The position numbers were made by a program, and so were the translations under genes. This document shows positions 24,829 to 63,078 of a DNA stretch of 64,000 nucleotides, piece by piece. The notes under the pieces were generated by a model. That model ran no database searches and had not been told where the DNA came from. It saw only the letters and a list, made by a program, of their open reading frames with translations. Every line of letters begins with the position of its first letter. Within the stretch, counting starts at the first letter, position 1. Source of the stretch: Candidatus Sumerlaeia bacterium (GTDB lineage Bacteria; Sumerlaeota; Sumerlaeia; SLMS01); the NCBI GenBank assembly GCA_038208905.1, contig JBBQYG010000003.1:2697-66696 (forward strand), given 5' to 3'.

Positions 24829-25845
24829 TCAGTTGCCTGCCGCGTCCTGCGGTGCGGCAAACCTGACCTTCGGGGTCTCGCCCCCGTCGATCTTCCTGAG
24901 ATTGGCGATGGGATCCTCCTCCAGTCGGAGGAACTTGAACCCGACCAGCACCGCCTTGCCATCCTTTTCCAGTTTTTCCTTATCCTCCAGGCGGCGCGCC
25001 ACATAGGCCTGAATCGGCTCCTCGCGCACGCGGGGCGGTGTGGAGTGAAGGAAGTTCGCCGTGCCGTCCTCGCCAATCGCCACAAGTCCAACATGAGGCA
25101 CATAAGTCCCGCCCTTGGGACTGCTGACCACTACGTTCACGTAGTCGCCGTTGCGCAGCAGGGGCTCCACGCGGGGGAGCGCCGATAGCGGCACATAGCT
25201 CGTGGTCAGCTTCTCCTTGGGAATGTCGCGGTCGATCTTGTAGCGATTCTTCAGGAACTTCGCGCGATCGAAAGTCCCGCTAAACTCCTTCGCGTCGTCG
25301 CCCGCCAGTTCTGCGCTGATGTCGCGGACAAGCCACGCGTTGTTCACGTTCCAGTCGGCCTCTGTGTAATGGTTGCGCGTCGCCACGCCGATTTCGCCGT
25401 CCTTGTAGCGGATGCGCTGGAGCATGGTGAAGAACGACGTCCAGTCATGGGAGAGCGCCATCGCATAGCTGTGCTCGCTGAACACCACGCAGTCGCTCCG
25501 GTCGAGGCAATAGAGCGGCTGGGGATCGTACGTCTCCACGGGAAACTCCCCGAGTAGGTACAGTTCATAAGGCTGGCCGATATTCTTCCGCCCAATGCGC
25601 ACGATGCGGTCCGGCAGGCTGGGCTCCACCTTCTGCATATACGCGAGATAGGGCCCCAGCTCTGCTTCGCTGAACTTGTAGAGTGGCTTCGCATCAAGCA
25701 CCGCGATTTGGTCGGCGTCGAGGCCCAGCGTCTCGACGATGGCCAGCGACTCCGGCGACAGGGGCTCCACGCGGGGCGCGGTTCCGGCGCAGCCCGAGAG
25801 GGCGGCTGCCACGGCAAGGGACAGGCAAAGTGCGGTGCGGCGCAT
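24829..25845 (-). CDS. Lipoprotein, possible papain-fold (DUF1460-like) amidase
   Basis: Lipobox LAVAAALSGCAG. A candidate Cys/His pair (YCLDRSDCVVFSEHSYAMAL). The family assignment is from memory and uncertain. Confidence 0.45.
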   Translation of the reverse strand: MRRTALCLSLAVAAALSGCAGTAPRVEPLSPESLAIVETLGLDADQIAVLDAKPLYKFSEAELGPYLAYMQKVEPSLPDRIVRIGRKNIGQPYELYLLGEFPVETYDPQPLYCLDRSDCVVFSEHSYAMALSHDWTSFFTMLQRIRYKDGEIGVATRNHYTEADWNVNNAWLVRDISAELAGDDAKEFSGTFDRAKFLKNRYKIDRDIPKEKLTTSYVPLSALPRVEPLLRNGDYVNVVVSSPKGGTYVPHVGLVAIGEDGTANFLHSTPPRVREEPIQAYVARRLEDKEKLEKDGKAVLVGFKFLRLEEDPIANLRKIDGGETPKVRFAAPQDAAGN

Positions 25846-25866
25846 GGAAGACCTCGCTTTCGTGGG

Positions 25867-27153
25867 TTAGGGGTAGATGAGGAACTGGGCGCGCTTCTTC
25901 ATGAACTCGTCAACCTGGGGCTGATAGTAGGCGATGATGCTCTCCGCCGAGTCGCCGCGCAGGATGCGCTGGCGGATTTCCTTGTCGCCCATCACCTTGT
26001 CAAACATTGCGCGGCGCGGATTGTCGTCGTTGAACAGGCCGGCCTCTGGATACAGCCGCTGGAGCACTTCCATCATGTGGATCTGCGCCTCCACCGGTCG
26101 AATCTTGCGGTAGTCACTGATGTGGAAGTGTGCGCCTTGGACGATCTCGTCCTTGAACTTGGAGGCGTAGGGCTTGATCGTGATCGGCATAACCAACAAG
26201 CCGGGGATGTTCTTGGCGCGCATCGCCGCCGTAAACTCGTCGCGGTCGATGAACGGCGCCGCGATCAACTCAAACGCCAGGGGATATCCCACGCCGATCG
26301 AAACGTCGTTCAGCTCGCCGATGATTCCCGTCAGGTTATAGTACATCGCGTGGCGTGCGCTGGGAATGTTTGGCGATGACGGCACAAAGGGGAGCCCCGT
26401 GTCCCACTGGAGCATGTCGCGTTCATACCCGCGCAGCGGCACCACCGTCAGGTCGCACTTCTTCTTGTTGTAGTGCTCGTTGAACAGCCCCGCAATCTCG
26501 CCGGGCGTCATGCCATACATATAGGGGATCGCATAGAGCCCAACGAAGCTGGTGCCCTGCGACTCGTCGAGGATGTTTCCGCTCACGATGTCTCCGCAGG
26601 GATTCGGCCGATCAAGCACGAAGAAGGGAATTCCCGCCTCGCCGCACGCCTCCATCGCATAGGCCATCGTATAGATGTATGTATAGCTGCGCGAGCCCAC
26701 GTCCTGGATGTCATACACCATCGCGTCCAGCCCCTCCAGAAACTCCGGTGGCGGGCGGCGCGTCTTGCCATAGAGGCTGAACATCGGGATCCCCGTGCGC
26801 GCGTCCACGGTGTCGGCGACCTTGTCGCCCGCGTGAATCTCTCCGCGGACGCCATGCTCGGGCCCAAAGAGCTTCACCAGTTCGATGTCCGGATGATCGT
26901 TGAGCAGATCGATGGTCGAAACCAGCTTGCTGTCGGCGCCCGTCGGGTTGGTGATCAGGCCGATGCGCTTCCCCTTCAGCTTGGCCAAGTACGCCGGCTC
27001 GGTCAACAGCACCTCGACTCCGGGCTTCACGCGGGGATGTTCCAGGCTATACTGATCGAAGGAAGCAGAACCGAACTTGGCACCCGTCGAGCAGGAAAAG
27101 AGGAGCGGGAGCGAGAGGGCCATCACGGCGAAGCGGGCAAATCGAAAAACCAT
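25867..27153 (-). CDS. NamZ-like exo-beta-N-acetylmuramidase (DUF1343 family) lipoprotein
   Basis: Start at internal MVFRFARFAVMALSLPLLFSCS (lipobox). DUF1343 hallmarks KRIGLITNPTG, YDIQDVGSRSYTYIYTMAYAMEA, FFVLDRPNP. Confidence 0.65.
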   Translation of the reverse strand: MVFRFARFAVMALSLPLLFSCSTGAKFGSASFDQYSLEHPRVKPGVEVLLTEPAYLAKLKGKRIGLITNPTGADSKLVSTIDLLNDHPDIELVKLFGPEHGVRGEIHAGDKVADTVDARTGIPMFSLYGKTRRPPPEFLEGLDAMVYDIQDVGSRSYTYIYTMAYAMEACGEAGIPFFVLDRPNPCGDIVSGNILDESQGTSFVGLYAIPYMYGMTPGEIAGLFNEHYNKKKCDLTVVPLRGYERDMLQWDTGLPFVPSSPNIPSARHAMYYNLTGIIGELNDVSIGVGYPLAFELIAAPFIDRDEFTAAMRAKNIPGLLVMPITIKPYASKFKDEIVQGAHFHISDYRKIRPVEAQIHMMEVLQRLYPEAGLFNDDNPRRAMFDKVMGDKEIRQRILRGDSAESIIAYYQPQVDEFMKKRAQFLIYP

Positions 27154-27250
27154 GCGGGGGTCACCTTGCGGGAGGAATTCCCACGAGCTTCCAAACCTGC
27201 CCCGTTGCCGCAACCTGAAATGGGCACCTCGGGCCATTATGGACAAGAAA

Positions 27251-28180: not shown

Positions 28181-29191
28181 CTACGTCAACATCCTGAGGA
28201 GAAGGGCCTTCTGCACGTGGAGACGATTCTCCGCCTCGTCAACCACCACGCTGTGGGGGGAGTCCAGAACCTCCGGCAGAACCTCCACGCCGCGCCTCAC
28301 CGGCAGACAGTGCATAAACAGCGCGTTATCGGTCCGGTTGAGGTGCTCGCGGGTCAACTGCCACTTCCCCTTCATGTTCAGCGTCACGCCCCGCTCCACC
28401 GCGGGATCGCCATAGTTCGTGATGCTGCCCCAGCTCTTGAAATACACGGCGCGCGCGCCCGGCAGCGCCTCGTCCAGTTCGTGATAGATCTTCACGCTGC
28501 CGCCTGCCGAGGCCGCGAGCTTGCTGGCAGTGTCCATGATGCCGGGATCCAATTCCCAGCCCGGGGGATGCGCCAGGCGCACCTCCATGCCAAACTTCGC
28601 CGCCTCCACCAGGATGCTATTGGAGACCGCCATTGGCAGTGGATTCACGTGCCACCCCCACGAGACCACGATGGGCTGGCCCTTCGGCTCGCCCAGCTTC
28701 TCGCGGATTGTCATGATGTCGGCGAGGCTCTGGCACGGGTGATGGCGCGAGGACTCCATGTTGATGATTGGTACGGTGGAATGGTCGATGAATCCGCGAT
28801 GCACGGGGTCGTGGCGGTTGGCCTCCCATGATTCGGTGTATTTGGGAAACGCGCGAATCGCCAAGGCATCGACATAGCGCGACAGCACCGGTGCCGCCTC
28901 GCGGATGTGCTCCACCGCCGTGCCGTCCATCACCACGTCGTCTCGGTACTCCAAGTTCCAGGTGTTGTCGCCCACGTTGAGCGACGTCGTGTGCCCGCCA
29001 AGCTGCTGCATCGCGATGTCGAAACTTGTCCGCGTGCGCAGCGACTGGTTGAAGAATACCATGCCCAAGGTCTTGTTCTGCAGCTCGCGGCCAAAGCGGC
29101 GCACCTTCAACTCCCGCGCAAGCTCCAGCAACTCCTGCGTCTCCGCGAGCGATAGATCGCCCGGCTCCATGAAAGTCGTCAGTGGCCTCAT
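28181..29191 (-). CDS. argF: Ornithine carbamoyltransferase-family enzyme, atypical (likely N-acyl-L-ornithine carbamoyltransferase, argF'-type)
   Basis: Carbamoyl-phosphate site SLRTRTSF (STRTR-like), HPCQ and HCLP motifs all present. The canonical ornithine-binding DxxxSMG is replaced (...YFKSWGSITNYG...). Confidence 0.7.
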   Translation of the reverse strand: MRPLTTFMEPGDLSLAETQELLELARELKVRRFGRELQNKTLGMVFFNQSLRTRTSFDIAMQQLGGHTTSLNVGDNTWNLEYRDDVVMDGTAVEHIREAAPVLSRYVDALAIRAFPKYTESWEANRHDPVHRGFIDHSTVPIINMESSRHHPCQSLADIMTIREKLGEPKGQPIVVSWGWHVNPLPMAVSNSILVEAAKFGMEVRLAHPPGWELDPGIMDTASKLAASAGGSVKIYHELDEALPGARAVYFKSWGSITNYGDPAVERGVTLNMKGKWQLTREHLNRTDNALFMHCLPVRRGVEVLPEVLDSPHSVVVDEAENRLHVQKALLLRMLT

Positions 29192-29206: not shown

Positions 29207-30259
29207 TTAGGGCCACATGCCCGGCCAGGAGAGCGGCGACGTCGCAGCCGCCGGGTCCAGGCCGTGCATCAGATAGAGGGATTCCACGCCCTGCCCGGCG
29301 CCGCCCTTCAGCAGGTTGTCGATCGTTGCCACCACGTGAAGGCGCCCATCCTCGCCAACGCGCGCCCGGACTTCGGCGTAGTTGGTTCCCGCGATGGAAC
29401 CGCACTCCGGCTCGCGGTCGCCGAGCACCTTCACAAAGGGCCCGCGCTTCGCGTAGAAGTCGCGATAGAGTGCCGCGGTTTCCTTCTGGGACATTGCCCC
29501 GCCCAGTTCCGCCGAAACCGATACCAGAATGCCGCGCACGATCGGCGCGGAGATCGGGATGAAGCTGAGTCCGCCGAGCGCCGAGCCCGCATCGCCCGCG
29601 AGCTGTAGAATTTCTGGCGTGTGCTGGTGCTTCAAGACCTTGTAGGGACGAATCGTCTGAGCGCGTGTGGGATGATGTGTCGTGGCCGTATGCTCGGCCC
29701 CCGCGCCGGAGGAACCGGTCAGCCCCGTGACGACGGGAATGCCGCGCAGCAGCCCCGCGCTCGCCGCCGGAAGAAGCGCCAGATTGATCGCCGTGGCAAA
29801 GCACCCCGGCGCCGCCACCAGCTGGGCGCCTGCGATGCGTTCGGCGTTGAGTTCCGTGCAGCCATACACCGAGCGCGCCAGCAAGTCGGGCCGCGGATGG
29901 TCGTGCTCGTACCAGCGCTTGTAGGACTCCGCGTCGCGCAGCCGGAAATCGCCGCTCAGGTCGATGACGCGCATTCCAGCATCGATGAACCAGGAAAGCG
30001 TCTCCGCCGAGGCGCCGTGTGGGAGCGCGCCGATGATGACGTCCGACTTCTCCGCGATCTCCTCGCGCGATGGGTCCGAAAAACAGAGTTCCGTCAGCCC
30101 ATCCAGATTGCGGTGAACGCCACCCACCGGCGTGCCGCCCTTGGCGCGGCTGGTCGCAAAGGCGATGCGGAACTCGGGCGCGCGCAGCAGAAGTCTGAGA
30201 AGTTCACCGCCGCCGTAGCCCGTCGCTCCCAGGATCGAAACCCGGATCGGAGCGCTCAT
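29207..30259 (-). CDS. argC: N-acetyl-gamma-glutamyl-phosphate reductase
   Basis: Start at internal MSAPIRVSILGATGYGGGELLRLL, where its ATG overlaps the stop of the upstream gene (ATGA). Catalytic-Cys region LVAAPGCFATAINLAL. Confidence 0.9.
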   Translation of the reverse strand: MSAPIRVSILGATGYGGGELLRLLLRAPEFRIAFATSRAKGGTPVGGVHRNLDGLTELCFSDPSREEIAEKSDVIIGALPHGASAETLSWFIDAGMRVIDLSGDFRLRDAESYKRWYEHDHPRPDLLARSVYGCTELNAERIAGAQLVAAPGCFATAINLALLPAASAGLLRGIPVVTGLTGSSGAGAEHTATTHHPTRAQTIRPYKVLKHQHTPEILQLAGDAGSALGGLSFIPISAPIVRGILVSVSAELGGAMSQKETAALYRDFYAKRGPFVKVLGDREPECGSIAGTNYAEVRARVGEDGRLHVVATIDNLLKGGAGQGVESLYLMHGLDPAAATSPLSWPGMWP

Positions 30260-31356
30260 TCCCGGATCTCGACGGTCAGGCCAACTTCCTTCGCGATCAT
30301 GCGGGCAAGCTCCATCGGCTCGTTTCGCGCGTTCGCGCAGGCGATGCCCATCGTGCCGGTGATGTAGGTCGTCCCCACGTCGTTGTCCGTCACGGGTCCG
30401 CTGATCACCTGGGGCTTGTGCTTCAGATCGTCCAGAAAGATCACGCCGCCCCACGCGCCCACCAGATCATTGGCGCACAGGATGCGCGCCGCCGTGCGGT
30501 GAAGGATCGATGGATCCTTCAGAATGCTATCCAGGTGATAGCCGCCGATGACGCCGTCGCCGAGTTCGAGCAGGATCATCTCCGGCTGGCTCTTCTCCAG
30601 CTCCGCGATGACAGAGCGCGCCACCGATGCCAGATCCGTGGCGTTCACCGTGCTTGGCAGTCCGCAATCGAGGAACGAGCACGTCTCCACCGCGCCGTTG
30701 TCGCGCATCGAGAGCACGTCCCTCAGCGCGGCCACGCCGGACAGCTTCCCCGCGGCGATGCGCACTCCGCTATGGCTCAGTATGCGGATTACCTCGCTTG
30801 CGGCATAGGTCTTTCCGCTGTTCATGCACGTGCCCAGAACGAGCACGATAGGCGGGCCCTCTGTGGGAATCGAATCGCACGGCGGCAGCGCGTAGTCGCG
30901 GATGTTCAACAGCTTGCCGTTGCGCGTCGCCTGACCCAGAACCTTGCACGGGATCGGCATTCCAAGCGCGCGGCTGGCCGACTTGCAGATGCCCATCACG
31001 CCGCCGATATTTAGCAGGTGGATCTCGTCGCCCATCGCGATCGTGGGCGGAACGATTCCCATATAGCCGTGCAGCGCCTGGCGCGCGCCCAGCACGCCGA
31101 CCAGGATATTCCCCGAGACCACCTTGGACATGCGCCCCGTGGGGAGTTCCAACTCGCCGTAAACCTTCCGCTCGCCCAGCGCCCGGACGACGATCACCGC
31201 GCCCTCCTCGGCAAGGCACTCTTCGCTCACCTCGACGATGTTGCCCAATCGCGCCGGGGAAGTCGCCGAGCCAATACGGTCCAAACGAATCTTTCGCGTA
31301 AATCGCAGCGGCGATTGCGGGGCATTGGCGGCATCCGGCGACGGCGAATCGGGCAA
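30256..31356 (-). CDS. DUF1611-like protein with non-classical P-loop (VLVLGTCMNSGKTYAASE), first gene of the arg operon
   Basis: 366 aa, two-domain composition. The GxxxxGKT-like motif sits mid-protein. Translationally coupled to argC. The DUF1611 assignment is from memory of family hallmarks, not a search. Confidence 0.5.
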   Translation of the reverse strand: MPDSPSPDAANAPQSPLRFTRKIRLDRIGSATSPARLGNIVEVSEECLAEEGAVIVVRALGERKVYGELELPTGRMSKVVSGNILVGVLGARQALHGYMGIVPPTIAMGDEIHLLNIGGVMGICKSASRALGMPIPCKVLGQATRNGKLLNIRDYALPPCDSIPTEGPPIVLVLGTCMNSGKTYAASEVIRILSHSGVRIAAGKLSGVAALRDVLSMRDNGAVETCSFLDCGLPSTVNATDLASVARSVIAELEKSQPEMILLELGDGVIGGYHLDSILKDPSILHRTAARILCANDLVGAWGGVIFLDDLKHKPQVISGPVTDNDVGTTYITGTMGIACANARNEPMELARMIAKEVGLTVEIRE

Positions 31357-31618
31357 TGGAGGGTGTCCCTTGTCGTGAAAATGAAAATCGCCGCGGCGGA
31401 TGCCCCGGAGACCGGGTCAAGTAGAGGGAAATGGCGGGGTGTCACAATGCCAATTTCGAGCGGGGGAGACGAGCACGGGAGTTCCATCGCGAATCACTCG
31501 ACCGGATTCGACGTCGAGGCGAATTCCGACTTGCCCTAAGACGCAACCAACTGAGTTGCTGCAACAAGGCCGGACTTCAGGAGGTCGTTGCTTGGCAAAG
31601 AAACAGCAACAGAGCCGA

Positions 31619-33730
31619 ATGCTTATCGGCGACATGCCGATCTACGAGGCGATTCGGCAGGGCTCGTCTGGTCAGGCGTCTGGCCCGGACAAGCTGAAGT
31701 TCGAACGGACGGCGCAGGTCCTTGCCGACGCCGCTGTGGAGAGCCACCAGCCGATCAACATCGGCGTGTATGGCAAGTGGGGCACCGGCAAGACCAGCCT
31801 CATGCGGCTGATGATGGAGAAGGTCCGCGACCCCGAGCGCGTCACTCCCGCGATCCCCGCCTGGTTCAATGCTTGGCAATACGAGCGTGACGAACACCTG
31901 ATCGTCCCGTTGATCGCGACGATCAACCGGGAGATCGAGCGTGAGATCGCCCAGATGGAGAAATCCCTACCCGCTCTGGAAAAAGCCAAGAGAGATGTAA
32001 AACAGGCACTCGTCACTGGCGCAAAGAAGCTCCACGCCGCCCTACGCTCCGTCGCCTACGGCTTCGCGATAAGGGGGAAGGTCGGCATTCCGATGATGGC
32101 CGAGGCGGACGTCAACCTTTCAGGGAAGGACATGGTCAACCGCTATCAGGAGCTGACCAAGGACTCCGTTCTTGCACGGAGTCTCTACTTCGACGCCTTC
32201 GAAGAACTGCGAAAGCTTTCCGACGGCAAAGAAATCCCACGTCCCCGCATCGTTGTCTTTGTCGATGACCTCGACCGCTGTTTTCCCGACAAGGCCGTGG
32301 AGCTTCTGGAGGGCATCAAGCTCGTCCTTCACCAGCCCGGCTTCTGCTTCGTTCTGGGCGTCAACGACGGGATCATCCGGGAGTATGTGAGGACCAAGTA
32401 CACCAAGGACTACAACATCGACATCGAGAAGGTTGACTTCAACTACCTCGAGAAGATCGTTCAGGTGGAAGTCCGCGTCCCCGAGCGGGCACCGGATGCC
32501 ATGACGGACTACATCGAAAGCCTACTGTCGGATGCGGGTATGCTAGAGGAGTTTTGCCCGCAAGGCGGCAGGCAAGTCGACAGGGACGTCCTCTTTGCCG
32601 CTGTCGCCATCGCGGGTCGCCAGAATCCGCGAGAGATCGTGCGAAGACTGAACAAGTTGATCCTTGCGTGGCGCCTGCAGGAAGCCGATGAGTTTCAACT
32701 CCTCGATCTCCTGCTCAACGACATCATACCTCCGCAATTGAAGTCCCGGCTGGATTCTCCGGTCGGTAGTGAAGACACCCCTATGACCCTTGCTGAACTT
32801 ATTCTGGCAATTGTCGTCAAGGCCGACCAGCATGCTACCGCAGAGGACTTTGTGGAGCACCTCAAGCGCGAGGTGCTCAGTAATAAATCGATCACCGCCG
32901 CTTACATCGACAAGATTCCCGACCATGAACTGCCCTCCCTCGCCATGCTACGAACCTTGCCCGGCAAGCGGTGGCTTGGGGACAAGAACTTGCGATCAGG
33001 TTTGGCCAAGATTGTTGTCGAAGCCACGGAAACACAGCCGAGTTCGGTCGTCCCGCAGGAGAGTGAACTCGTCCAGCGCGCCATCCGCGAAATCGAGCGC
33101 GACATGGTGGATATTCCCGGGGGTGACTTCATGATGGGGGAGGACGAGAGTAGCGTCGAGGTCAGGCTCTCCGCCTTCAAGATGTCAAAGTACCAAGTCA
33201 CTCAGGATGTCTACGAAGCCATCACGGGAAAAAATCCATCAAAATTCAAAGGCCCAAGGATGCCCGTTGAGTCCGTCTCTTGGAGCGATGCGGAGGTGTT
33301 CTGTGGACGGCTTTCATCATTGACTGGCAGAATCTGGCGCCTGCCGACGGAGGCACAATGGGAGTATGCCTGCAGGGCGGGATCCCAGACAGCGTATTGT
33401 TTTGGTGACGACGGGGCGAAACTCGAAGAATATGCTTGGTTCGAAAAAAACTCCGGGCAATCGACTCATCCGGTCGGCGGGAAGAAGCCCAACAAATTCG
33501 GGCTGTACGACGTGCACGGCAACGTGTGGGAGTGGTGCGCGGATTGGCATGGGTCCTCGCTTCCGGGCGGGACGGACCCGACGGGGCCTTCGTCGGGTTC
33601 GTACCGCGTGGCTCGCGGCGGCAGCTGGTTCGGCAACGCCCAGAACTGCCGGTCGGCCAATCGTTTCATCATCGTCCCGTCGTTCCGGATCAGCTACTTC
33701 GGGTTCCGCGTTCTTTCTCCAGTCCAGTGA
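31619..33730 (+). CDS. KAP-family P-loop NTPase fused to C-terminal FGE-sulfatase (SUMF1/formylglycine-generating-enzyme-like) domain
   Basis: Start at internal MLIGDMPIY (ATG 31619), where the ORF track begins at 31400. Walker A GVYGKWGTGKTSL and KAP-type Walker B IVVFVDDLDRCFPDKAVELLEGIKLVL. C-terminal FGE hallmarks MVDIPGGDFMMG, WRLPTEAQWEYACRAG, GLYDVHGNVWEWCADW, VARGGSWF. No TM segments. Confidence 0.8.
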   Translation: MLIGDMPIYEAIRQGSSGQASGPDKLKFERTAQVLADAAVESHQPINIGVYGKWGTGKTSLMRLMMEKVRDPERVTPAIPAWFNAWQYERDEHLIVPLIATINREIEREIAQMEKSLPALEKAKRDVKQALVTGAKKLHAALRSVAYGFAIRGKVGIPMMAEADVNLSGKDMVNRYQELTKDSVLARSLYFDAFEELRKLSDGKEIPRPRIVVFVDDLDRCFPDKAVELLEGIKLVLHQPGFCFVLGVNDGIIREYVRTKYTKDYNIDIEKVDFNYLEKIVQVEVRVPERAPDAMTDYIESLLSDAGMLEEFCPQGGRQVDRDVLFAAVAIAGRQNPREIVRRLNKLILAWRLQEADEFQLLDLLLNDIIPPQLKSRLDSPVGSEDTPMTLAELILAIVVKADQHATAEDFVEHLKREVLSNKSITAAYIDKIPDHELPSLAMLRTLPGKRWLGDKNLRSGLAKIVVEATETQPSSVVPQESELVQRAIREIERDMVDIPGGDFMMGEDESSVEVRLSAFKMSKYQVTQDVYEAITGKNPSKFKGPRMPVESVSWSDAEVFCGRLSSLTGRIWRLPTEAQWEYACRAGSQTAYCFGDDGAKLEEYAWFEKNSGQSTHPVGGKKPNKFGLYDVHGNVWEWCADWHGSSLPGGTDPTGPSSGSYRVARGGSWFGNAQNCRSANRFIIVPSFRISYFGFRVLSPVQ

Positions 33731-59095: not shown

Positions 59096-59498
59096 CGCGG
59101 CTTGCGAATGGAATGGGATACTGGGAATCCTCGCCGAAGTAGTAGACCGAGTTTGTCTTTCTGCCGATGGCGAAGTAGTTCTGCGAAATCTCGATCACTT
59201 TTCCATTCTTGCTCTCCCGCTCTTCCACAATGCGGGCCTCCACTCCATCTACCATCAGGGTTTCCTCGGTGACGGTGATAGTCAGGGTCTCGCCCGAAGC
59301 ATTGTCGAACTCCGCATACTCGGCGACCCACCCGGGCTCCAGGATGAAGTAGGGATTCGTTCCGGCTGACATGAGATCAGACTTGTCCTCCGGGAAATCG
59401 CGCTGGAAGTCGTCGGCCTTGGTCCCTCCCGTGTGGGCATAGGATGCGGCAAACACGAGGGTGCCCAATGCAACGGAACAGCACACTGACTTGTTCAT
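59096..59498 (-). CDS. Small secreted domain protein with undefined 3' end (reads through, out of frame, across the downstream membrane-protein gene)
   Basis: Start at internal MNKSVCCSVALGTLVFAASYA (signal peptide, ATG 59496-59498). Protein-like for ~125 aa (...GRKTNSVYYFGEDS), then it becomes Arg-rich junk overlapping the 58796-59095 gene in another frame. A frameshift or a gene fusion is suspected. Confidence 0.35.
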
Positions 59499-59655
59499 GG
59501 CGAACGCTCCTTGCCGCTTTGAATCAGAATGGAATCCGCTGCGATTAGGAAGCAGTAGCCATTCGGAAGCTGAAGTTTTTGAGGAATCTCCCCTCGCCAC
59601 CATAAAATCCAGGCTCAAGGATGGCCCTAAGAATCCGATCCGGAGGAATCCACCC

Positions 59656-60579
59656 ATGATTGTGCGCGTCGCCGCCGTACAGGCATCACCCGTATTCCTC
59701 GATCTGGATGCCACCCTTCAGAAGACAATCGGCCTGATTGAGGAAGCCGCGGCGCTCGGCGCGCGCTACATCGTCTTCCCCGAGTCGTGGCTTCCCGGCT
59801 ATCCCGCATGGCTCGACTTCTGCCCGGGCGCCGCGTTGTGGAATAGCCCGGGCGCGAAGGCCGTCTTCGCGCGGCTCCGCGAGAACAGCGTGGTGGTCGA
59901 CGGGCGCGAGACCCAGGCGCTCGCTGAGGCCGCCCTACGCCTCGGCGTCGTGCTCGTCGTCGGCATCCATGAGCGCGTCGACTCCGGGCCAGGACGCGGC
60001 ACCCTCTATAACACGTTGCTCACATTCGACGAGATGGGAGCACTCGCAAACGCACACCGCAAGCTGGTCCCCACCTACACGGAACGACTGCTCTGGGGAC
60101 AGGGCGACGGCAAGTCGCTCGTCGCGACGCCTACCGGAGTTGCCGGCCGCGTCGGAGGGCTCATCTGCTGGGAGCACTGGATGCCGCTTTCGAGACAGGC
60201 GCTACACAACTCCGGCGAGGACATCCACGCCGCCGTGTGGCCCACGGTGCATGAGATGCACCAGATCGCCAGCCGCCACTATGCCTTCGAGGCACGCTGC
60301 TTCGTCGTTGCCAGCGGGGGGATATTGCGAGTCCGCGATCTGCCCGCGGACTTGGAAGTCATCGCTGAACTCAAGGACCGCCCCGATCACATGGTACTTC
60401 GCGGCGGGAGCGCCGTCATCGGCCCCGACGGCAAGTACATCGCCGAGCCAGTCTTCGCCGAGGAGACAATCGTTGTCGCCGACTGCGATTTCCGCCGTAT
60501 CGACGAGGAACGCATGACTCTCGACACAGCCGGACACTACTCGCGCCCCGACGTGTTTAGGTTCGGCATTCGCGAATAG
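59656..60579 (+). CDS. Nitrilase/cyanide hydratase family (carbon-nitrogen hydrolase branch 1)
   Basis: ATG 59656 with GGAGGA RBS. Catalytic E (FPESWLPGYP), K (HRKLVPT) and C (GGLICWEHWMP) motifs. Confidence 0.8.
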   Translation: MIVRVAAVQASPVFLDLDATLQKTIGLIEEAAALGARYIVFPESWLPGYPAWLDFCPGAALWNSPGAKAVFARLRENSVVVDGRETQALAEAALRLGVVLVVGIHERVDSGPGRGTLYNTLLTFDEMGALANAHRKLVPTYTERLLWGQGDGKSLVATPTGVAGRVGGLICWEHWMPLSRQALHNSGEDIHAAVWPTVHEMHQIASRHYAFEARCFVVASGGILRVRDLPADLEVIAELKDRPDHMVLRGGSAVIGPDGKYIAEPVFAEETIVVADCDFRRIDEERMTLDTAGHYSRPDVFRFGIRE

Positions 60580-61228: not shown

Positions 61229-61374
61229 AGCGCAGAGGCGCTGGAGGAGCGTCGCAGGCTGTTCTTTCGGAACCTGATGCGGTCGCGGCGCGCGGTTTCA
61301 GTTGGCAGTCTCCCATTGCGTCTTGGACCCGTCGGCTATTGAATCGCGTGACCATAAATTCGGGAGAATTGGAA

Positions 61375-63078
61375 ATGCATCCCTTCACTTGGCTGCTCGC
61401 ACTATCGGTCCCTACGGGTGTCTGGGCCGCGGGAATCAACATCGCCGCCGATGTGAATCGCGACGGAGTGGTCGACTTTGCCCGTGACGCGCCCGGAAAG
61501 GCCCAGTGGTCATGGGAGCGCGGCGCCGTCTTTCTGAACAACAACGATAGCGACGCCAACAGCGGCCAGCCGGATCACGCCGATGATGTGGTAAACGATG
61601 CCGCGGATCTGGCGGACCTTGCGCCGATCCTGATTCAGCGCCTCTCCAGCATGGAACCCGGCTCGGTGCTGAGCGTGGGGGTAAACCCGTCGGCGGCCCC
61701 CTATATCAAACTCTTTGCCGGAGGGAGCGCAGGTTGGCAGCCCCTGAACTCCAACGGATCGAACGTGCTCGATGCCGCTCTCCTTGCCGTCGGCGATATC
61801 GAGCTGCGCATCGAGGCCAACAGCTATGCCCTGCCCGCGTGGGACGGCCAGGTGGACGTGACCGCAACGCTGGTGCCGCCCGGTGGACAATCGGTCAGCG
61901 ATACAGTGCGCCTGCGCGTGGCGCCTTGGCTGATGCTCGGTCACTCCCGCCCGGCCACCCAGGTCTATCTGCGCGAGTACATCGGCCAGAACGACGTGAT
62001 GCGCGGTCAACTCCAGGCGATCCTCCCGGGGATCGGGTCGTCGCTGGTTGTCTCCCCACAGTCGGATCCCTACCCCTCCAACAATATCTGGATGCAGGAC
62101 GCGATGGAGATCGGCTATTCGGAGATGCCCGGTCGCCGGATGAACGTGGTGCTCAAGTCGAACCGCGGCCCCTCGTGGCCACTGAGCAACTACCCCAAGG
62201 ACGAGCTGCTGGGCCGCGACTTTGGATGGTTCCAGATCGGTGACTATCGATCGTCCTTTGCCGTCGGAAGTGCACCCGACGGCTGGTTGGATTGGTTCGG
62301 CAATTTGGAGGTCACGCCGCCGATCATCGGCCACCCCTTTGGCCGCGCCTACTATGGCTGGAATCCCGAGAGCGGCCAAGGCCTTGATCCGCGAATCGTG
62401 GGGATGATCGACGCGCAGAACCTTCAGGCACCCGCGCTCAAGCTCGATGTCGGCTGGCTCCTGATTCAGCATGTGGACGAGTTGGTGTGCTGGGTGCCCG
62501 CCGCCGATGGCGGATGGAGGATTCTCGTCCCCGACACGCGCGTGATGTATCAGCTGCTGGATGAATGGGTGGCTGCTGGATATACGTCACAGCCCATGAT
62601 GAGGCTCTATGAGCCGACAGAGTCCGTCGGCGCCTTCCGCAACGACGCAACCGATCGCGCGCGCAACCTGGCGCTTCAGTCCAGCCGCATCGATCCGGTC
62701 ATCGAGGCGATGAAGTCCGCCTGGGGGCTGACCGAGGCGCAGGTAATCCGCGTGCCGTCGGCGTTCTACAGCAACGGCGGCGCATACGTCCCCTCGATGG
62801 TGAACGCGTTGGTGGTGAACGGGGCGATCCTGGTCGCCGATCCCCACGGTCCCGAGCCCGATGGGGCCGATCTGATGCAAGCGCACTTCAGGGAGAGTCT
62901 TGCCGCCGCGGGCGTCGAGCTGGCAGTGCATTTTCTGGACGATCAGCGCTATCACCGCTGGAGCGGGAACGTCCACTGCGCCACCAATGCCCGGCGGGAG
63001 GCATACGATCCGGGCGTCTGGGCATCGCTCACCGTGGAGCCCGCGTCCTCCGACAGTGAGAACTGGATGCTTCGCTAG
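61375..63078 (+). CDS. Secreted protein-arginine deiminase (PAD)-like / amidinotransferase-superfamily protein
   Basis: Start at internal MHPFTWLLALSVPTGVWA (signal peptide). Ca-binding-like ADVNRDGVVDFARD. C-terminal catalytic-Cys region YHRWSGNVHCATNARRE resembles the PAD active site. The family call is from motif memory. Confidence 0.5.
   Translation: MHPFTWLLALSVPTGVWAAGINIAADVNRDGVVDFARDAPGKAQWSWERGAVFLNNNDSDANSGQPDHADDVVNDAADLADLAPILIQRLSSMEPGSVLSVGVNPSAAPYIKLFAGGSAGWQPLNSNGSNVLDAALLAVGDIELRIEANSYALPAWDGQVDVTATLVPPGGQSVSDTVRLRVAPWLMLGHSRPATQVYLREYIGQNDVMRGQLQAILPGIGSSLVVSPQSDPYPSNNIWMQDAMEIGYSEMPGRRMNVVLKSNRGPSWPLSNYPKDELLGRDFGWFQIGDYRSSFAVGSAPDGWLDWFGNLEVTPPIIGHPFGRAYYGWNPESGQGLDPRIVGMIDAQNLQAPALKLDVGWLLIQHVDELVCWVPAADGGWRILVPDTRVMYQLLDEWVAAGYTSQPMMRLYEPTESVGAFRNDATDRARNLALQSSRIDPVIEAMKSAWGLTEAQVIRVPSAFYSNGGAYVPSMVNALVVNGAILVADPHGPEPDGADLMQAHFRESLAAAGVELAVHFLDDQRYHRWSGNVHCATNARREAYDPGVWASLTVEPASSDSENWMLR

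Follow-up and report, generated by a model that had tools for sequence, protein, structure and literature searches.

The stretch of DNA analyzed here (the window, 64,000 nucleotides) comes from a Candidatus Sumerlaeia bacterium (GCA_038208905.1, contig JBBQYG010000003.1) and carries an operon with the gene order X-argC-argF'-argB on the minus strand (Table 1). The head gene, named X in this work, encodes an unannotated two-domain protein that is a candidate for the enzyme of the first step of arginine biosynthesis, i.e., the formation of N-acyl-L-glutamate. The public gene call on the identical contig has the same start and the same 366-aa product (P0001, 100% identical). No in-frame start other than the TTG was found ahead of the conserved region, and the GC content at third codon positions (0.83) is usual for the coding frames of the window. 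A first-pass annotation of this DNA had described a protein of about 366 aa with two domains and an internal GTCMNSGKT motif, coupled to argC through an ATGA overlap, and the open reading frame (ORF), the motif and the overlap were all located.

The window ArgB consists of the kinase domain, without a fused acetyltransferase domain. The first-pass annotation had also named the downstream enzymes as ArgB, ArgC and a carbamoyltransferase of the acyl-ornithine type, an assignment with which the profile scores agree, and had pointed out that the operon contains no argA/argJ-type gene. This is borne out by a Pfam scan of 45 window ORFs, none of which showed an ArgJ or GNAT domain. No arg genes beyond the X operon were found among these 45 ORFs.

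Table 1. Features of the X operon and of the X protein, with their positions in the window.
Feature	Position	Strand	Evidence or remarks
argB, N-acylglutamate kinase, 290 aa	27251..28123	-	TIGR00761, 238 bits; PF00696 only
argF', N-acylornithine carbamoyltransferase	28181..29191	-	NF003384, 403.9 bits
Val93 codon of ArgF', equivalent to Glu92 of Xanthomonas acetylornithine carbamoyltransferase (acetyl/succinyl switch)	28913..28915	-	
argC	29207..30259	-	TIGR01850, 326.8 bits (cut-off 233.6); Pfam matches
ATGA stop/start overlap of X and argC (TGA of X on ATG of argC; translational coupling)	30256..30259	-	
Gene X ORF	30256..31356	-	366 aa, TTG start; two-domain; candidate N-acyl (probably N-succinyl)-L-glutamate-forming enzyme
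X C-terminal SIMIBI-type P-loop domain, residues ~166-366	30259..30861	-	Foldseek
X Walker-B-like ELGDG, residues 264-268	30553..30567	-	Invariant E264, G266, D267, G268
X invariant Lys204, strand beta2, motif GKLSG	30745..30747	-	Aligned with catalytic Lys37 of dethiobiotin synthetase
X Walker A GTCMNSGKT, residues 175-183	30808..30834	-	Invariant G175, T176, M178, N179, G181, K182, T183
X N-terminal all-beta domain, residues ~17-165	30862..31308	-	DSSP of models; invariant columns including Y66, E70, G74, R75, R92
Probable divergent intergenic/promoter region, X to KAP-NTPase gene	31357..31618	.	Public gene calls

Conserved arginine context and the ArgF' switch residue

The X family has more than 2,600 matches in 90% clusters and, against representatives at 50% identity, 1,253 clusters at E<=1e-10 and 447 at E<=1e-30. 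Relatives occur in at least 510 GTDB species genomes. The nearest ones are from Sumerlaeota (65-75% identity), and the named relatives, all of them annotated as 'hypothetical protein', belong to Sumerlaeota, Pyrinomonadaceae, Blastocatellia, Chloracidobacterium, Chloroflexia, Planctomycetota, Myxococcales, Gemmatimonadota, and Pseudomonadota. Conservation within the family is strong (mean column identity of 61%, 64 invariant columns), as expected of an enzyme.

The genomic context was analyzed in 83 fetched loci of Sumerlaeota, Acidobacteriota, Chloroflexia, Planctomycetota, and Myxococcota. The argC gene is located on the same strand and no more than 700 bp downstream of X, with a median gap of 102 bp, in 71 of the 75 loci that are long enough, and argF' and argB are found within 10 kb of X in 39 and 40 of 43 loci, respectively. 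Fuller clusters show the orders argG-X-argC-argF'-argB-M20(argE)-argH, argR-X-argC-argD-HAD-argF'-argB, and argR-argG-X-argC-argD-argF'-argB...argH. Thus, X co-occurs with every other arg step, and the first step is the only one that is never found beside it; no ArgJ or GNAT gene was seen in the flanks (+/-10 kb) of the related loci. In some clusters (L002:13264-13929, L003) a HAD-family hydrolase lies between argD and argF'.

Members of the family that score about 240 bits against the family profile are still located in arg clusters. Those scoring 170-210 bits are located outside of them, one beside a nucleotidyltransferase and an arginase-family gene, and therefore, the arginine role would belong to a clade and not to the whole superfamily.

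The window ArgF' aligns best with the N-acetylornithine carbamoyltransferase of Xanthomonas. The switch site of the Xanthomonas wild type reads MDGDTEEHI vs MDGTAVEHI in the window ArgF', and the single best PDB match of the latter is an acetylornithine carbamoyltransferase entry that carries Val at the switch. The mutations E92A/P/S/V turn acetylornithine carbamoyltransferase to N-succinylornithine, according to the summary of Shi et al. (2007) by Price et al. (10.1101/2024.10.14.618325). A Val at the position equivalent to Glu92 therefore makes N-succinyl-L-glutamate a likelier product than the N-acetyl-glutamate that the first-pass annotation had proposed. The pathway probably runs through succinylated intermediates, X making N-succinyl-L-glutamate, to judge from this residue. 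Among 61 ArgF' proteins adjoining X homologues, the switch residue is Thr in 56, Ala in 3, and Ser in 2, and never Glu. This sample, in which Thr is the commonest residue, is mostly from Pyrinomonadaceae.

A divergent locus (L087:126-4750, ENA contig NODE_122143, ERZ24794647; also L088) has the order argG-argF'-X-argC on a contig of 30% GC, and its ArgF' carries Gln at the Glu92 position. Every gene of this cluster contains many in-frame TGA codons. The 26 of the X homologue fall on invariant glycine columns (ELPTGR, LGxR, GxVP, NxGGVxG), so TGA encodes Gly here (genetic code 25), and not Trp as the gene caller assumed. This code is that of Gracilibacteria/Absconditabacteria, organisms in which one would not expect an arginine cluster.

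The role in arginine biosynthesis has been predicted independently for a family that is apparently the one studied here. Price et al. (GapMind 2026 preprint; bioRxiv 10.1101/2024.10.14.618325, Appendix 2) proposed ACG33_RS14135 of Steroidobacter denitrificans as the missing ArgA (N-succinylglutamate synthase), a prediction that is computational only. According to these authors, the gene of this hypothetical protein is virtually always part of an arg operon, its homologues never share a genome with ArgA homologues, and the protein is a very distant Foldseek relative of PDB entry 7XRJ (E=1.4e-7), the structure of the D-glutamate N-acetyltransferase DgcN. In the ArgF' proteins encoded beside its homologues, position 92 is A, P, S, or V in 90%, with two Gln exceptions. 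Steroidobacter also has no recognizable ArgE (10.1101/2024.10.14.618325).

The X family is likewise unannotated, clusters with argB, argC, argD, argF', argE, argG, argH, and argR, and shows a remote similarity to DgcN and no closer one; the same role is proposed for it, and its neighboring ArgF' proteins lack Glu92, with the rare Gln variant present in both sets (L087 in ours). Thus, the X locus presents two characters of the Steroidobacter family, an unannotated protein in arg clusters and a residue other than Glu at ArgF' position 92. The two families are almost certainly the same, to judge from the hallmarks, all of which match. Two differences were noticed: 7XRJ, a Foldseek match of ACG33_RS14135, is not among the top 50 of X, and A/P/S/V dominate the genus-level sample of Price et al., whereas Thr dominates ours. 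The first-pass annotation had presented X as a novel replacement of the first step; the replacement role is sustained by the synteny and by the lack of ArgA/ArgJ nearby, but not the novelty, since Price et al. had predicted the same.

Some distant members occur in other contexts. A paralogue of 172 bits (P0263) lies in a phosphonate-type cluster (L096:4801-9566, GCA_027007625.1, and L097:889-5655, GCA_015522845.1) with the order phosphoenolpyruvate mutase (PepM), split phosphonopyruvate decarboxylase, aldehyde dehydrogenase, X-like protein, cytidylyltransferase-like protein, which suggests that the fold of X is used for other carboxylate/amine chemistry. A member of 208 bits (P0222; L098:8001-9086 and L099, Logan SRR33769978) is encoded on a sparse eukaryote-like contig together with PP2C, RNase III, KPWE, and MRP-S33, and the superfamily may thus reach eukaryotes. 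For a divergent member (P0264, L086:2-922), the preceding gene encodes a fusion of a RimK-like/sugar-transfer ATP-grasp domain with a putative zinc protease domain, a further context with a glutamate-ligase flavor outside arg clusters.

Fold, motifs and relationship to DUF1611

The AlphaFold2 model of X, built with an alignment of 38 sequences, has a pLDDT of 92.9 and a pTM of 0.88, and the N-terminal domain modeled alone is all-beta with a pLDDT of 92.7. This domain had no significant match in the PDB by Foldseek (best E=0.38); LexA/UmuD-like matches with E=0.4-3 were rejected as noise. The 50 best Foldseek matches in the PDB, which concern the C-terminal domain, consist of SRP54/FtsY, dethiobiotin synthetase, CTP synthase, and HypB entries, with probability 1.0 and E values between 8e-7 and 4e-5, and the top match in the viral structure library (BFVD) is CTP synthase. 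With this fold and a Walker A of the form GxxxxGK[ST], X carries a SIMIBI-class P-loop domain of the BioD/CTP synthase type.

The Walker A of X aligns with GTDTEVGKT of E. coli BioD (dethiobiotin synthetase). In an hhalign comparison of the X family with BioD, VLVLGTCMNSGKT...AAGK204 falls on YFVTGTDTEVGKT...AGYK37 (E=0.0086 over 34 columns, a short and weak alignment). BioD and X share the GTxxxxGKT motif and may also share the lysine that ends strand beta2 (K37/K204) and the glutamate with which the Walker B strand closes. Invariant across the X family are the canonical GKT, Lys204, and, where strand 260-265 ends, E264-L-G-D267-G. Among enzymes, BioD and the amidoligase domain of CTP synthase score highest in the fold search. 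They form a C-N bond once ATP has activated an oxygen, a likeness that would extend to X if it uses ATP. They differ from X in that the identity is 11-19% over the region aligned by Foldseek, in the extra beta domain of 150 residues in X, and in their unrelated substrates.

The first-pass annotation had recognized in X the architecture of DUF1611, a family whose characterized member, DgcN, was said to be a D-glutamate N-acetyltransferase. DgcN is indeed a characterized enzyme of this activity (EC 2.3.1.312), but X failed every sequence and profile test for this family, and its N-terminal domain is different. Searches of Pfam and NCBIfam with the single sequence gave no significant match, nor did a search of PDB sequences with X or with the family profile. 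At a relaxed threshold, PF07755 matched 31 residues around the P-loop of X with 13.2 bits (E=0.06), below the cut-off of 25 bits. Such weak matches were present in 24 of the 38 family members (best E=1.6e-5), and the same 38 members matched other P-loop families, CbiA in 23 cases and MobB in 16. DUF1611_N (PF17396) did not match any of the 38.

As a reference for DUF1611, we used the phage protein AD1_017 of MH460463, which gives 157 and 64 bits on the two DUF1611 models (64 bits on DUF1611_N) and retrieves DgcN (7XRJ), 2OBN, and 2G0T from the PDB. When the X family was compared by hhalign with these three and AD1_017, the probability was 3.9% (E=0.011 over 46 columns around the P-loop), so that the match to BioD is as good as that to DUF1611. 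The hidden Markov model of the X family did not find 7XRJ, 2OBN, or 2G0T among PDB sequences at E<=10, and neither 7XRJ nor other DUF1611 structures are among the 50 best Foldseek PDB matches of X. Weak response-regulator matches of X were rejected as due to chance. Thus, X is not a member of the DUF1611/DgcN family in the strict sense, as far as sequence comparison tells, and its P-loop domain is no closer to DUF1611 than to dethiobiotin synthetase and CTP synthase.

DgcN (DUF1611_N plus DUF1611) and X are nevertheless alike in several respects. Both have about 340-370 aa in two domains, a BioD-like P-loop in the C-terminal domain, a GTxxxxGK motif and an E-G-x-G strand end, and DgcN acts on the amino group of a glutamate, as proposed for X. 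On the other hand, the N-terminal domain is Rossmann-like in DgcN and all-beta in X, and the motifs GK[M/K/R]xT, TGQTG, and EGQG..H of DUF1611/DgcN stand against GKT, GKLSG, and ELGDG in X; the four DUF1611 sequences compared (7XRJ, 2OBN, 2G0T, AD1_017) all have GK[M/K/R], TGQTG, and EGQG at these sites. Moreover, DgcN is catabolic, D-specific, and encoded in D-glutamate utilization clusters, whereas X is encoded in clusters of arginine biosynthesis. A role of X in D-glutamate catabolism of the DgcN/DgcA type was rejected, as a partner racemase was looked for without success and the context of X is biosynthetic throughout.

A genuine DUF1611/DgcN-like protein, which scores 178 bits to 7XRJ, is found in the jumbo Dickeya phage AD1 (L084:13015-14932, MH460463). 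Its gene lies between those of a methyltransferase and an asparagine-synthase-like protein and overlaps the latter by 8 bp.

The reaction proposed for X and its alternatives

The first-pass observation as a whole is partly confirmed. Its core logic, i.e., a P-loop protein at the head of an arg cluster whose enzymes need an N-acylated substrate, with no ArgA/ArgJ nearby, is strongly supported, because the synteny is kept across phyla and the independent published prediction agrees with it. We consider a first-step role of X overall to be likely. That X channels glutamate into arginine synthesis as an N-acyl-L-glutamate synthase without relationship to ArgA, ArgJ, and the GNAT enzymes, with N-succinyl-L-glutamate as its most likely product, is the reading that we favor and consider reasonably probable.

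What we infer about the reaction, about the acyl group and about its donor can be put as follows. X would form N-acyl-L-glutamate, most likely the N-succinyl compound, from glutamate; ArgB would phosphorylate this product and ArgC would reduce the phosphorylated form. After transamination, ArgF' would carbamoylate N-succinylornithine. The genes for the remaining arginine steps are located outside the window. The all-beta domain, with invariant Y66, E70, R75, and R92, probably holds the substrate carboxylates, and the P-loop domain would bind the nucleotide part of the acyl donor, by default succinyl-CoA by analogy with DgcN. The same step is assigned to BT3761, the N-succinylglutamate synthase of Bacteroides thetaiotaomicron, which is likewise encoded in an arg operon and whose pathway has succinylated intermediates. 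BT3761 is of the GNAT type, and X has no sequence or fold relationship with ArgA, ArgJ, or BT3761; no Pfam or NCBIfam match to a GNAT, ArgJ, or amino-acid-kinase domain was found in X.

Several points weigh against this reading of X. DgcN, the sole acyltransferase on this fold, has a marginal likeness to X, and the canonical GKT, Lys204, and Glu264 are as much in keeping with the use of ATP as with that of CoA, or more so. The finding that there is no ArgA-type synthase applies to the 64-kb window and to the +/-10 kb of the related loci. Thr is absent from the E92 mutants tested, and thus, the succinyl assignment is weaker for the lineages with Thr. Finally, the distant paralogues in non-arginine contexts indicate that the fold itself does not dictate the reaction.

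The points on the active site lead to the possibility that X is an ATP-dependent ligase, in which a free carboxylate (succinate or similar) would be converted into an acyl phosphate and attacked by the alpha-amino group of L-glutamate, without acyl-CoA. By analogy, this would be the chemistry of dethiobiotin synthetase, the amidoligase domain of CTP synthase, and the Mur/FolC ligases. We regard this as rather unlikely. The best catalytic structural matches of X are dethiobiotin synthetase and CTP synthase, one family member was automatically annotated as 'dethiobiotin synthetase', and the alignment of GTCMNSGKT...K204 on GTDTEVGKT...K37 of BioD is no worse than that with DUF1611. DUF1611 differs at the GKT and Lys204 motifs, which leaves room for a ligase mechanism, and the invariant GKT, Lys204, and E264-x-G-D267 are absent from the four DUF1611 sequences compared. 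The member found in the code-25 organism of 30% GC points in the same direction, as code-25 lineages usually have no tricarboxylic acid cycle and hence no succinyl-CoA. The motif comparison thus leans towards an ATP-competent site. However, the alignments behind it are short and weak, with E about 0.01; a GKT P-loop can equally hold the diphosphate of CoA, and the only characterized remote relative, DgcN, is reported to use acetyl-CoA without ATP (Yu et al., 2023).

The other alternatives fit the data less well. An acetyl-CoA-dependent N-acetyltransferase of the DUF1611/DgcN type, making N-acetyl-glutamate for an acetylated pathway, as the first-pass annotation had it, is quite improbable. NCBIfam does name the neighboring carbamoyltransferase N-acetylornithine carbamoyltransferase, the window ArgF' is nearer to the acetylornithine enzyme of Xanthomonas (280 bits) than to the succinylornithine enzyme of Bacteroides (182 bits), and the weak PF07755 matches of the family would agree with this reading. 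Nevertheless, the switch residue is Val and not Glu, as in the best PDB match of this ArgF', and the tests of DUF1611 membership all failed. Very improbable is an accessory or regulatory NTPase (sensor, assembly factor, repair enzyme) or a substitute for a different step, e.g., an acyl-citrulline deacylase, in spite of the non-enzymatic SIMIBI GTPases SRP54, FtsY, and HypB among the top Foldseek matches, of the lack of a recognizable ArgE in Steroidobacter, and of the distant paralogues outside arg clusters. X shares its clusters with M20 ArgE-like genes, argD, argG, and argH, and it has neither GTPase specificity motifs nor the deviant Walker A of ParA/MinD; the first step alone lacks a gene, and according to the preprint, no genome combines ArgA homologues with this family. 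A carrier-protein pathway of the LysW/ArgX type was also considered and rejected, as ArgB is a true acetylglutamate kinase by its score, the substrate of ArgF' is free acyl-ornithine, and there are M20 deacylases.

The proposal that X makes N-acyl-, probably N-succinyl-L-glutamate bears on a standing gap in pathway reconstruction, namely the many arginine-making bacteria without a recognizable first-step enzyme. If true, the X family would close this gap for at least 510 species-level genomes of Sumerlaeota, Acidobacteriota, Chloroflexia, Planctomycetota, Myxococcota, Gemmatimonadota, and some Pseudomonadota, and it would be the third or fourth independent invention of N-acylglutamate synthesis. 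The annotations of X members as 'hypothetical protein' and of ArgF' as an acetylornithine enzyme are probably wrong or incomplete. As the preprint already holds the prediction, what the window adds is a compact operon, X-argC-argF'-argB, for testing it, together with the observation that the active-site motifs of X look more ATP-like than DgcN-like. If X were a ligase, the first step of arginine biosynthesis would proceed by a previously unknown reaction on a BioD/CTP-synthase scaffold with a new beta-domain. In that case the wider superfamily (447 clusters at E<=1e-30), which includes the members in phosphonate clusters and on eukaryote-like contigs, would be a new class of acyl-phosphate-forming amide ligases.

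Neighboring genes of the window

Divergently from X, a plus-strand ORF (31400-33730) encodes a KAP-family P-loop NTPase fused to a C-terminal FGE-sulfatase (formylglycine-generating-enzyme-like) domain. Its listed start probably lies some 220 bp too far upstream; in the public call, the product has 691 aa and the gene begins about 262 bp upstream of X. The region between both genes contains no consensus sigma-70 promoter, and the scan of the operon for promoters and terminators gave nothing above the shuffled expectation.

Straight after argB, the minus strand (24829-27246) encodes NamZ (exo-beta-N-acetylmuramidase) and an AmiA-like amidase, with no predicted terminator between them and argB. 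These are peptidoglycan recycling genes, unrelated to arginine. As the other loci do not have them, their possible co-transcription with the arg genes would be peculiar to this organism.

Farther away, a plus-strand gene (61339-63078) encodes eukaryote-type protein-arginine deiminase domains (PF03068, 208 bits, plus PAD_M). It is located about 760 bp downstream of a carbon-nitrogen hydrolase gene (59461-60579, plus strand), with a small ORF on the opposite strand between the two. The PF03068 domain is uncommon in bacteria.

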